Virus record (IMG/VR): IMGVR_UViG_2826321507_000003
Strand: one strand, 5' to 3'
DNA: 9,662 bases
DNA from: a virus
Taxonomy: Duplodnaviria > Heunggongvirae > Uroviricota > Caudoviricetes
Position numbers and translations under genes: made by a program. Shown here in pieces: positions 1 through 3,548 of this stretch. Numbering within the stretch: position 1 is the first letter of the stretch; every line of letters begins with the position of its first letter. The notes under the pieces were generated by a model, which was not told the origin of the DNA, searched no databases, and saw nothing but the letters and a program-made list of their open reading frames with translations.

Positions 1-396
1 CATTACCGTGATAACGCCATTACCTACAAAGCCCAGCGCGACAAAAATGTCAGAGAACTGAAGCTGGCGAACGCGGCAATTACTGACATGCAGATGCGTC
101 AGCGTGATGTTGCTGCGCTCGATGCAAAATACTCGAGGGAATTAGCCGATGCGAGAGCTGAAAATGAAACTCTTCGCGCTGACGTTGCCGCTGGTCGTAA
201 GCGCCTGCGTATCAACGCCACCTGTCCAGGTCCCGTGCGTGAAGCCACCGGCACCGCCCGCGTGGATAATGCAACCGGCCCCCGACTGGCAGACACCGTT
301 ACACGGGATTATTTCACCCTCAGAGAGCGGCTGATGACGATGCAGAAGCAACTGGAAGGGGCGCAGGAATATATCCGTACTCAGTGCCTGAAATAA
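1..396 (+). CDS. Rz: Rz-like i-spanin (inner-membrane spanin subunit), 5'-truncated by window edge
   Basis: Frame 1 is open from position 1 to the TAA at 394-396. The translation ([16 protein letters not shown]...[16 protein letters not shown]...[19 protein letters not shown]) is collinear with lambda Rz as I recall it, with high identity. Position immediately upstream of cos matches the lambda lysis-cassette layout. Confidence 0.9.
149..334 (+). CDS. Rz1: Rz1-like o-spanin (outer-membrane lipoprotein), embedded in the +1 frame of Rz
   Basis: 61-aa ORF wholly inside Rz in a different frame. It has a lipoprotein signal with lipobox LVVSAC and a proline-rich mature part ([30 protein letters not shown]) nearly identical to lambda Rz1 as recalled. 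The true start may be the second Met (KMKLF...). Confidence 0.85.
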
Positions 397-477
397 GTTT
401 TGTTGATGCGCCGTATCGTCGCTGTATTCCCTCATTAACAGAGACCGCAGCCCGACAGGGAGACTCCTCTGCGCGAG

Positions 478-492
478 NNNNNNNNNNNNNNN
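478..492. other. Run of 15 ambiguous bases (N): assembly gap or masked sequence of unknown true length
   Basis: Directly visible in the sequence. Reading frames cannot be trusted across it. Confidence 0.99.
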
Positions 493-517
493 GCGATGGT
501 GGAAGAAACCGGGATGT

Positions 518-712
518 TTATTCATCATCACTTTGGATTGATGTATATGCTCTCTTTTCTGACGTTAGTCTCCGACGGCAGGCTTCAATGACCCAGGCTG
601 AGAAATTCCCGGACCCTTTTTGCTCAAGAGCGATGTTAATTTGTTCAATCATTTGGTTAGGAAAGCGGATGTTGCGGGTTGTTGTTCTGCGGGTTCTGTT
701 CTTCGTTGACAT
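518..712 (-). CDS. Small ribbon-helix-helix (Arc/MetJ/CopG-like) putative DNA-binding protein, 64 aa
   Basis: Minus-strand ORF with ATG at 712-710 and TAA at 520-518. It has a basic N-terminus (KNRTRRTTTR) followed by RNIRFPNQMIEQINIALEQKGSGNFSAWVIEACRRRL, which fits a beta-strand/helix/helix RHH pattern. Small genes of this kind (possibly the DUF3950/YlcI type, which I cannot verify) occur between the lysis cassette and cos in lambdoid prophages. The ribosome-binding site is weak. Confidence 0.55.
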   Translation of the reverse strand: MSTKNRTRRTTTRNIRFPNQMIEQINIALEQKGSGNFSAWVIEACRRRLTSEKRAYTSIQSDDE

Positions 713-911
713 GAGGTTGCCCCGTATTCAGTGTCGCTGATTTGTATTGTCTGAAGTTGTTTTTACGTTAAGTTGATGCAGATCAATTAATACGATACCT
801 GCGTCATAATTGATTATTTGACGTAGTTTGATGGCGTAGATGCACGTTGTGACATGTAGATGATAATTATTATCATTTTGCGGGTCCTTTCCGGCGATCC
901 GACAGGTTACG

Positions 912-923
912 GGGCGGCGACCT
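912..923 (+). other. cosN: 12-nt cohesive-end sequence GGGCGGCGACCT, terminase nicking site
   Basis: The 12-mer is an exact match to the lambda cohesive end. The flanks (...GTCCTTTCCGG[C]GATCCGACAGGTTACG upstream and CGCGG(T)TTTTC(A)CTATTTATGAAAATTTT downstream) are nearly identical to the lambda right and left genome ends as I recall them. Confidence 0.85.
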
Positions 924-956
924 CGCGGTTTTTCACTATTTATGAAAATTTTTCAG

Positions 957-1073
957 GGAAAATCGTGTCGGTACTTCTCGAATATAACTTTTTGTTTTTT
1001 TTAATATTGCATCCGTAAAGGTCCGACATGAAAGTGTCCGAAAATGCCTTTTTCTGGCGTTTTCATGTCGGGC
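957..1073 (+). promoter_or_regulatory. cosB-like terminase small-subunit binding region with three R-site-like repeats (R3-like about 961-973, R2-like 1021-1033 inverted, R1-like 1061-1073) and an AT-rich bendable spacer
   Basis: Three copies of a shared core occur here: aaTCGTGTCGGta, the inverted GTCCGACATGAAA (reverse complement TTTCATGTCGGAC), and tTTCATGTCGGgc. They lie at about +49, +109 and +149 from cosN, with nu1 starting at +188. This mirrors lambda R3-I1-R2-R1 spacing and orientation. A T-rich tract at 990-1010 sits where the IHF site I1 would be. Confidence 0.6.
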
Positions 1074-1099
1074 CTTGTATTTGATAATGGGTTGTTTTC

Positions 1100-1648
1100 A
1101 TGAAGGTTAATAAAAAGAGGCTTGCCGAAATTTTCAACGTGGACCCGCGGACGATTGAACGCTGGCAGTCTCAGGGACTCCCTTGCGCCTCCAAAGGTAG
1201 TAAGGGCATTGAATCTGTATTTGATACTGCCATGGCAATTCAGTGGTATGCGCAGAGGGAAACTGATATCGAAAACGAAAAGCTCCGCAAAGAACTGGAC
1301 GATTTGCGTGCGGCAGCGGAGTCAGATTTACAACCCGGCACCATTGACTATGAACGCTACCGGCTCACAAAAGTGCAGGCAGATGCGCAGGAACTGAAAA
1401 ATGCCCGTGAAGACGGAGTAGTGCTGGAAACTGAACTGTTTACCTTCATTCTGCAACGTGTGGCACAGGAGATTTCGGGGATACTTGTGCGTGTGCCGTT
1501 GACATTACAGCGTAAATATCCGGACATTTCACCATCACACCTTGATGTGGTGAAAACTGAAATCGCGAAAGCCTCCAATGTTTCAGCTAAGGCCGGTGAA
1601 AACGTGGGCGGATGGATCGATGATTTCAGACGCGCAGAAGGCAGCTAA
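1100..1648 (+). CDS. nu1: Terminase small subunit (gpNu1-like), 182 aa
   Basis: The N-terminus [23 protein letters not shown] (winged-HTH region) and the run ENEKLRKEL...[14 protein letters not shown]...AQELKNARE are collinear with lambda Nu1 (181 aa). Position right after cos is as expected. Confidence 0.95.
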
Positions 1649-3548
1649 TGCAGCCGGTGCGATAGCTACAGGGCTTTTATCTCTCATTATTCCTGTTCCA
1701 CTGACGACAGTTCAGTGGGCCAATAAACATTATTACCTTCCTAAAGAGTCGTCTTATACCCCGGGGCGGTGGGAAACACTGCCGTTTCAGGTTGGCATCA
1801 TGAACTGTATGGGCAACGATCTGATTCGCACGGTTAACCTGATTAAATCTGCCCGTGTTGGTTATACAAAGATGTTGCTGGGAGTGGAGGCTTATTTTAT
1901 TGAGCATAAATCACGCAACAGCCTTCTTTTTCAGCCCACGGACTCAGCTGCTGAAGATTTTATGAAATCTCATGTTGAGCCAACGATAAGGGATGTTCCT
2001 GCATTGCTGGAGCTGGCTCCATGGTTCGGAAGAAAACACCGCGATAATACGCTCACCCTGAAGCGTTTTTCCTCCGGTGTGGGGTTCTGGTGTCTGGGTG
2101 GTGCGGCAGCAAAAAACTACCGTGAAAAATCCGTGGATGTGGTCTGTTATGACGAGCTTTCCTCGTTCGAACCGGATGTTGAAAAAGAGGGTTCGCCAAC
2201 CCTGCTGGGGGATAAACGTATTGAGGGCTCTGTATGGCCAAAATCCATTCGCGGCTCGACGCCTAAAATCAAAGGCTCCTGCCAGATCGAAAAAGCCGCT
2301 AACGAGTCGGCACACTTCATGCGTTTTTATGTGCCCTGTCCGCACTGTGGGGAGGAGCAGTATCTGAAATTTGGCGATGATGCCTCGCCTTTCGGTCTTA
2401 AGTGGGAGAAGAATAAGCCAGAAAGTGTTTTCTACCTTTGTGAGCATCATGGCTGTGTGATCCATCAGTCTGAGCTTGACCAGAGTAACGGGCGGTGGAT
2501 CTGTGAAAACACGGGCATGTGGACCCGTGACGGCCTGATGTTTTTCAGCGCCCGGGGTGATGAAATTCCGCCGCCGCGCTCCATCACTTTCCATATCTGG
2601 ACGGCGTACAGTCCGTTCACCACCTGGGTACAGATTGTCTATGACTGGCTGGATGCACTGAAAGATCCCAACGGCCTGAAAACCTTTGTGAACACCACGC
2701 TGGGCGAGACCTGGGAAGAGGCCGTGGGCGAAAAACTCGATCACCAGGTACTGATGGATAAGGTTGTGCGTTACACGACGGCGGTGCCTGCCCGGGTGGT
2801 TTATCTGACGGCGGGCATTGACTCGCAGCGAAACCGTTTTGAGATGTATGTCTGGGGATGGGCTCCGGGAGAGGAAGCCTTTCTGGTGGATAAAATCATC
2901 ATTATGGGGCGTCCCGATGAGGAAGAGACGCTATTACGTGTGGATGCGGCGATCAACAAAAAATACCGCCATGCAGACGGAACCGAAATGACTATTTCCC
3001 GTGTCTGCTGGGACATCGGGGGGATTGATGGCGAAATCGTTTATCAGAGGTCAAAAAAACACGGTGTTTTCCGGGTGCTGCCGGTAAAAGGCGCATCTGT
3101 CTATGGCAAGCCGGTGATCACCATGCCAAAAACCCGCAATCAGCGGGGCGTGTATCTGTGTGAAGTGGGGACGGACACCGCAAAAGAAATTCTCTATGCC
3201 CGTATGAAAGCCGATCCCACGCCTGTGGATGAAGCCACGTCGTATGCCATCCGTTTTCCTGATGATCCGGAGATTTTTTCGCAGACAGAGGCGCAGCAAC
3301 TGGTGGCGGAAGAGCTTGTGGAGAAGTGGGAAAAAGGAAAGATGCGTCTGCTGTGGGATAACAAAAAGCGGCGTAACGAAGCGCTGGACTGCCTGGTGTA
3401 TGCCTACGCGGCATTACGTGTGTCCGTGCAACGCTGGCAGCTTGATCTGGCTGTACTGGCAAAATCCCGGGAAGAAGAGACGACCCGGCCAACCCTTAAA
3501 GAACTGGCAGCGAAGCTGTCCGGAGGAGTGAATGGTTACAGTCGCTGA
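1620..3548 (+). CDS. A: Terminase large subunit (gpA-like: ATPase/translocase plus nuclease), about 642 aa
   Basis: Collinear with lambda gpA (641 aa) over its full length. Shared motifs include [22 protein letters not shown](T)[48 protein letters not shown] and [11 protein letters not shown] chose the ATG at 1620 over the ORF-track start at 1578 because it gives a lambda-like length and an overlap of about 29 nt with nu1. Confidence 0.93.

Follow-up and report, generated by a model that had tools for sequence, protein, structure and literature searches.

A standalone YlcI/YnfO family gene beside cos in a lambda-like prophage and its probable ribbon-helix-helix product

Introduction

YlcI of prophage DLP12 and YnfO of prophage Qin in Escherichia coli K-12 are members of one protein family that is without known function, though near-ubiquitous in E. 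coli and omitted from the reference annotations of phage lambda. Both are encoded between the lysis genes or bor and the cohesive-end site (cos), divergent from Nu1/Noh. Here, a gene of the same family, size, and position is described at positions 518 to 712, minus strand, of a 9,662-nucleotide (nt) stretch of Caudoviricetes DNA (IMG/VR record IMGVR_UViG_2826321507_000003), which is called the window throughout. The window covers the cos region of a lambda-like prophage, and the gene, referred to as ylcI, sits between Rz and cos. Compared to DLP12 and Qin, the accessory genes that usually follow it (bor/iss, DUF1398, and ybcW) are missing, and the Rz stop codon lies about 200 nt past ylcI. In K-12, ybcW, which is next to ylcI, is convergent with it, and transcripts of the two genes overlap in RNA sequencing data (PMC12288877).

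Two further groups of described proteins are relevant. Antitoxins with a ribbon-helix-helix (RHH) fold, such as TacA, ParD, CopA-SO, and Rv0298, are encoded directly upstream of a conserved toxin gene and have a C terminus that binds the toxin; YlcI has neither. Arc and Mnt of phage P22 are, like YlcI, small phage proteins, in which an N-[ILF]-R-[FWM]-P strand motif, a helix, a glycine-containing loop, and a second helix align in register with YlcI but without significant sequence or profile similarity. Residues of the Arc strand contact DNA bases. A preliminary description of the window had assigned a clear RHH signature to the 64-amino-acid (aa) product of ylcI and had read the gene as the first of an overlapping antitoxin-toxin or regulator-effector pair or, alternatively, as a standalone prophage regulator beside cos.

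Results and Discussion

The 64-aa open reading frame is a genuine gene of the YlcI/YnfO family

The open reading frame (ORF) list and direct reading of the minus strand confirmed an ATG-started ORF of 64 aa at 518 to 712, as previously described, whose 3' end reads AGT GAT GAT GAA TAA, with the TAA stop codon at 520 to 518. The product matched Pfam DUF3950 (PF13132; E = 2e-20; 72.8 bits against a cutoff of 25), NCBIfam NF041551 YlcI_YnfO_N ("YlcI/YnfO family protein"; 37.6 bits against a cutoff of 30), and phrog_949 (PHROG 949, function unknown; E = 1.2e-35). It contains the conserved core of the family, IRF...NFSxWV..AC, and its sequence is that of the YlcI annotated by RefSeq in locus L004 (loci used for comparison are given by L numbers) and of the YlcI annotated in strain 120899. 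The RefSeq name for this ORF in E. coli prophages is "YlcI/YnfO family protein." Among 17 homologues, I15, R16, F37, S38, V41, and A44 were invariant, and F17, W40, and C45 were nearly so. In addition to the matches to curated hidden Markov models, 1142 database homologues set the ORF well apart from a chance frame.

Compared to the two most diverged lambdoid copies, the ylcI frame contained 14 synonymous and 4 nonsynonymous changes and 21 synonymous and 5 nonsynonymous changes, respectively, while the corresponding counts in the overlapping antisense frame were 9 and 11 and 15 and 13. Synonymous changes thus dominate the ylcI frame and not the antisense frame, and the minus-strand frame is therefore under selection at the protein level. 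A plus-strand ORF that overlaps ylcI (384 to 740) was rejected as a gene, being extended by a run of N, broken in L002 and L004, and free of any synonymous excess.

The gene is already catalogued, a very common prophage gene of unknown function. Of 5,426 complete E. coli genomes, 4,597 matched positions 300 to 1100 of the window (ylcI plus cos), and the median genome did so in two places. Among 1.84 billion representatives, the family makes up just 143 clusters at 50% identity; it is thus narrow, and it is confined to Enterobacterales, apparent lambda control-DNA contamination aside.

Dozens of near-identical YlcI hits were found in Streptomyces, Pedobacter, Cohnella, and Staphylococcus assemblies (e.g., L005 to L034), mostly on contigs of about 3.5 kb, and many frameshifted ENA "proteins" were among the hits. 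These hits resemble contamination with lambda control DNA and noise from raw reads in the public databases. Hits in unrelated taxa that were judged to be contamination or error-laden reads were left out of the alignments.

The gene is also present in phage lambda itself. A 64-aa homologue is encoded at 48109 to 48303 (complement) of NC_001416 (2710 to 2904 of L085). It shares 62 of its 64 residues with the window protein and lies about 200 bp short of the lambda right end, as far from the right cohesive end as ylcI is in the window. This ORF is without a feature in NC_001416 and J02459 but is annotated in phage 434 and in several lambda-like records. Unlike the window, lambda has lambdap79, lambdap78 (DUF1398), and bor after the ylcI ORF. 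It was considered whether lambdap79 might be an antisense ORF of ylcI, and this was discarded, as the lambda ORF list places lambdap79 further left as a separate gene.

The overlapping downstream frame is not a second gene

Potential start codons in a frame other than that of ylcI (GTG at 531 to 529, ATG at 528 to 526, and ATG at 525 to 523) were present as described and read MMMNKHPGFFHHR into a run of 15 N at 478 to 492. The proposal that they open a second gene overlapping the ylcI stop codon did not survive comparison with relatives. All fetched loci with the identical 39 nt before the gap (n = 38) were compared, and continuation sequence for the gap came from 34 loci. The frame continues as ...HHRTGKATMRVTLRLSAQ* in 36 of the 38 loci, for 28 aa in all, with its stop codon 15 codons past the gap edge; in the other two, an inserted IS3 element makes it a frame of 41 aa. 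Once the gap is filled from relatives, then, the downstream ORF terminates soon past the gap edge, which is the outcome that the preliminary description had named as speaking against its own proposal. The frame comprises 17 aa of different sequence in lambda and is absent from L002, where the C terminus of YlcI is replaced, and nothing comparable followed ylcI in about 40 distant homologues.

No annotation of the frame was found in RefSeq or phage annotations of the loci compared, nor do these annotations place a codirectional gene next to ylcI. The 28-aa peptide had no match in Pfam or PADLOC, YlcI had none in PADLOC, and no purine-rich ribosome-binding sequence preceded the frame when the minus strand was read directly. 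Across about 120 loci, ylcI had no conserved codirectional partner. The downstream frame is judged from these sequence comparisons to be a noncoding, 28-codon chance reading frame. A minus-strand ORF of 129 aa (142 to 531) that includes it was likewise dismissed, as it depends on reading the 15 N as XXXXX, beyond which the frame is open by chance antisense to Rz.

The sequences on either side of the gap are parts of a single conserved noncoding module of about 200 nt (397 to 477 plus 493 to 517 in the window; 1833 to 2039 in L004). In relatives, this module separates ylcI from bor/iss or Rz, and the flanks aligned with a spacing of 84 to 87 nt in L001, L002, and L004. No locus with exactly both window flanks was found among complete E. 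coli genomes (queries 330 to 720, 493 to 600, and 1 to 3000) and the fetched loci; the window is a mosaic, with a left flank like that of L002 and a right flank like those of DLP12 and 434. The content of the gap and its length of 84 to 87 nt were therefore taken from relatives, and an insertion sequence like that in L003 may conceivably lie within it. The left part of the module (397 to 477) had matches of 77 to 89% in L038, L042, and L088. The module is split by the lambdap78/79 insert in lambda, where it adjoins bor, and by IS3 in L003. It had no Rfam match, and its RNA folding z-scores (-0.7 and -0.2) were not unusual. A bor promoter region and a recombination linker are possibilities for its nature.

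ylcI lies at a fixed position in a conserved block that ends at cosN

The features of the window around ylcI are as follows.

88 to 396, plus strand: 3' part of the Rz spanin gene (Pfam Phage_lysis, E = 9.8e-44; ORF list)
397 to 477, no strand: left part of the conserved noncoding module (about 200 nt in full), directly after the Rz stop codon (alignment)
478 to 492, no strand: run of 15 N, a gap or mask; relatives have 84 to 87 nt of conserved noncoding sequence between the same flanks
493 to 531, minus strand: visible part of the overlapping downstream frame, judged noncoding (starts GTG 531, ATG 528, and ATG 525; MMMNKHPGFFHHR)
518 to 712, minus strand: ylcI-type gene, 64 aa, YlcI/YnfO family, DUF3950 (ORF; Pfam, NF041551, and phrog_949)
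713 to 881, no strand: conserved region upstream of ylcI, the expected promoter location, with an inverted repeat (782 to 794/802 to 814) and a palindrome (860 to 876)
882 to 923, plus strand: lambda-type cos, with cosQ (GGGTCCT) at 882 to 888 and the cosN cohesive-end sequence GGGCGGCGACCT at 912 to 923 (sequence)
1100 to 1648, plus strand: Nu1 small terminase gene, divergent from ylcI across cos (Pfam Phage_Nu1, E = 1.8e-80)

This layout, with the end of Rz at 396, ylcI at 518 to 712 on the minus strand, cosN at 912 to 923, and Nu1 from 1100, was the same in L001 to L004 and L036 to L042. The distance from the ylcI ATG to the Nu1 ATG was 387 to 396 nt in every lambdoid locus, with ylcI reading away from cos, and cosQ lay about 170 nt upstream of ylcI in lambdoid prophages. 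In phage 434, the annotated cosQ site has the same relative position, and the lambda right end could be aligned with the window up to 911.

Segment-wise identity placed a break exactly at cosN. From the ylcI core to cosN (548 to 923), the window was 93 to 100% identical to prophages (L004, L037, L039, and L042) whose cosB/Nu1 region was only 55 to 64% identical. Among lambda-like phages, cosQ and cosN are conserved and cosB carries specificity (PMC4669245), with which the mosaic break at cosN agrees. At the other end, the conserved block begins within the last ten or so codons of ylcI, and this explains the alternative C-terminal tails of the family (64, 61, 66, and 77 aa). The 77-aa YnfO type differs in its C-terminal tail and in having a DUF1398 gene about 45 nt downstream; otherwise, nothing of substance differs.

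Upstream of ylcI, nucleotide identity of 713 to 881 was 92 to 100% to five of six aligned prophages, including prophages with a different cosB/Nu1, and 88% to L002. Noncoding positions 713 to 781 were 99 to 100% identical in five of the six, above the identity of the ylcI coding sequence. An imperfect 13-nt inverted repeat (782 to 794/802 to 814) and an 8+8 palindrome (860 to 876) in this region are candidate binding sites, which nothing links to YlcI.

Downstream of ylcI, the neighbors vary. Rz follows directly in the window and L001, a 46-aa hypothetical protein gene in L002, bor/iss in L004 and 434, and IS3 in L003; elsewhere, lambdap79 and DUF1398 follow in lambda and DUF1398 in the YnfO type. 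The gene is thus a standalone gene without a partner, at a fixed position relative to cos. Of the two arrangements raised in the preliminary description, the standalone prophage regulator beside cos is the one that fits best, with the gene always about 170 nt from cosQ in lambdoid prophages and no conserved partner; the regulator role itself is predicted.

The YlcI fold is probably ribbon-helix-helix

The signature described as clear was recovered in part. The predicted fold and the best structural neighbors are RHH-like, though below significance, and no RHH family was significant by sequence. Searches of the PDB with the single YlcI sequence returned nothing relevant, and with a 17-member profile the best match, CopG (9kkd), was not significant (E = 1.2). 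Among Pfam RHH families, RHH_6 was matched by 1 of the 17 members, again not significantly (E = 0.092).

An AlphaFold monomer model built from the 17-sequence alignment (predicted local distance difference test score, 67) was extended over residues 1 to 18, followed by a helix (19 to 32), a short loop, and a second helix (37 to 60). No strand was called, as expected for a lone RHH chain whose partner is absent. The predicted layout is a basic N-terminal arm and strand (RNIRFP, residues 13 to 18), the first helix, a loop with the NFS motif, the second helix, and a variable acidic tail. The top Foldseek matches in the PDB were mostly of the RHH type (NikR, Arc, TCP domain, HicB, NikA, MazE9, ParD, and TacA), with E values of 0.6 or above. 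With hhalign, NIRFP and the first helix aligned onto FNLRWP and helix A of Arc, with the same register on Mnt and CopG; the alignment to Arc was not significant (P = 0.011; probability, 4%). Invariant positions fell on the putative strand, at the start of the second helix, and within it. Together, the model and these alignments suggest that YlcI probably has an RHH fold.

Distant homologues recur at regulator-like positions in satellite elements

Most distant homologues (33 to 60% identity) lacked a lambda-type cosQ-cosN within 3 kb. Divergent from the homologue in at least 17 of the 42 distant loci is an operon with an Icd-like gene at its head and a D5-type primase gene at its end; an integrase gene and an AlpA-like gene lie on the other side of the homologue. 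Such integrase-bearing elements with a divergent DUF3950 homologue are P4-like or phage-inducible chromosomal island (PICI)-like satellites. Long antisense frames at the satellite loci were set aside as artifacts, the real gene there being the short Icd-like ORF.

The divergent intergenic regions of several satellites contain element-specific repeats. Two perfect TGGTACGTACCA palindromes 33 nt apart were found in L088 (4440 to 5363), three copies of GTGYACCCYCAC in L059 (2860 to 3204), and three copies of GTGTGTAGA in L079 (2810 to 3174). Such an arrangement is that of a switch region with its repressor or regulator, and the repeats are operator-like.

In L088, the abundant 120-aa satellite protein P0251 (5001 to 5363) is a fusion in which a DUF3950 domain is joined to the DNA-binding N-terminal region of a Terminase_2 small terminase; the same satellite has a further, unfused DUF3950 gene next to it. 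P0251 was indexed in 43 blocks of the assembly collection, and 24 contigs carrying it were read. Solitary copies were found elsewhere, either between sopB/ipgD and a C69 peptidase in Salmonella or beside an Mrr/M78 protein. The former include L047 and L049 (3001 to 3147), from Salmonella enterica subsp. diarizonae and arizonae, with a solitary homologue between genes of the IpgD/SopB family and a C69 peptidase, a layout that we take to resemble Salmonella pathogenicity island 5 (SPI-5).

Proposed role of YlcI and alternatives

The comparisons point to ylcI as a standalone YlcI/YnfO gene of the lambdoid ylcI-cosN block whose product is, on balance, likely to be an RHH DNA-binding regulator. From the predicted fold, we infer a protein that would dimerize and bind DNA. 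In the manner of Arc and Mnt, the N-terminal strands (RNIRFP) of two YlcI copies would come together as a two-stranded sheet that recognizes DNA in its major groove, with the two helices as the dimer core and the NFS motif at the start of the second helix. The gene reads leftward, away from cos and opposite to the late transcript, and is therefore probably expressed independently of the late genes, as its neighbor bor is. YlcI would most likely act as a small transcription regulator, either at its own promoter region or on neighboring accessory genes. The divergent position beside the Icd-like/primase operon in at least 17 of 42 distant loci counts for a regulatory role.

Several observations weigh against this interpretation. 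No sigma-70 match of 9/12 or better was found on the minus strand upstream of ylcI, and no strong Shine-Dalgarno sequence precedes it, the ATG having only a GGGG about 8 nt in front of it. Arc and Mnt are encoded in immI and control ant, whereas YlcI is without a known operator or target. Literature searches turned up passing mentions of YlcI, YnfO, and DUF3950 but no functional study of the family and no account of an ORF left of cosQ. The near-perfect conservation of the block could also stem in part from recent recombination rather than function.

Other explanations were weighed against a regulator that acts alone. It is extremely improbable that YlcI is an RHH antitoxin of a type II toxin-antitoxin (or regulator-effector) pair with the overlapping ORF (MMMNKHPGFFHHR...) as a toxin cut by the gap. 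The downstream frame on which such a pairing depends lacks both length and conservation (28 aa in 36 of 38 loci, 17 aa in lambda, and missing from L002 and all distant homologues), was never annotated, and matched no toxin or defense family in Pfam or PADLOC; the C-terminal tail of YlcI, where antitoxins bind toxins, is its least conserved part and is swapped between variants, and its neighbors vary wholly by context (Rz, bor/iss, IS3, DUF1398, ybcW, integrase, SopB/PipD, and Mrr-M78). The two-gene toxin-antitoxin idea is thus not supported, and the apparent second gene is an assembly gap translated through. It is very improbable that the ORF is not expressed and that the block is conserved as DNA, as an extended cos or a recombination linker with an incidental open frame. 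Such a view would account for positions 713 to 781 being conserved as well as or better than the ORF, for the weak promoter and Shine-Dalgarno signals, and for the omission of the ORF from lambda reference annotations, but it conflicts with the synonymous changes that dominate the ylcI frame (14/4 and 21/5) and not the antisense frame and with homologues at 32 to 60% identity that keep the motif pattern in loci without any cos.

A role as a packaging accessory, in which YlcI would bind DNA to the left of cosQ, or terminase, and modulate cos cleavage or packaging termination, is unlikely. The constant 170-nt distance from ylcI to cosQ, the conservation of the block up to exactly cosN, the fusion of DUF3950 to a small-terminase DNA-binding part in P0251, and the position of the L088 homologue next to an HNH/Terminase_2 packaging module would all suit this role. 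It is opposed by the orientation of ylcI against the late transcript, by the positions of most distant homologues, which are regulatory rather than packaging related and have no cosQ-cosN within 3 kb, and by the extent of functional cos, which is described as about 200 bp (cosQ, cosN, and cosB), nothing beyond its left end having been reported as necessary (PMC4669245). Doubtful, too, is an immunity-type repressor common to helper phages and satellites, which would repress the Icd-like/primase early operon and through which the phage copy would cross-talk with satellites. The divergent "repressor slot" by int and alpA-like genes in at least 17 of 42 loci, the element-specific operator-like repeats, and the presence of phage and satellite copies together in one region (L088) speak for it; on the other side, binding is predicted, the repeats may serve a different regulator, no divergent early operon adjoins the lambdoid copy, and phage and satellite copies are only 35 to 50% identical.

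A broader proposal, which we consider distinctly unlikely, is that the YlcI family comprises the missing protein repressors of Enterobacterales P4-like and PICI-like satellites, with the near-universal copy in lambda-like phages repressing or signaling to satellites. The lambda right end enters the cell first, and under a looser variant of this proposal ylcI would therefore be the first phage gene available for transcription and its product an early-entry regulator. Were the satellite-repressor or early-entry reading true, it would supply a function for an overlooked gene of phage lambda itself. The likely Arc-like fold and the recurrent "repressor slot" in satellites are concrete leads on YlcI function.

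Other features of the window

Pfam searches of the genes flanking ylcI in the window covered Rz and Nu1. To the right of Nu1, a large terminase gene and long plus-strand ORFs are arranged like the lambda head genes. Inside Rz, in another frame, a plus-strand ORF of 61 aa (149 to 334) has a lipoprotein-like signal ending in Cys, and its position is that of Rz1 (o-spanin). In cosB, just upstream of the Nu1 start codon, a 27-nt inverted repeat (1018 to 1076) is 81% complementary, with 5 nt between its arms; oppositely oriented small-terminase binding sites would resemble such a repeat.
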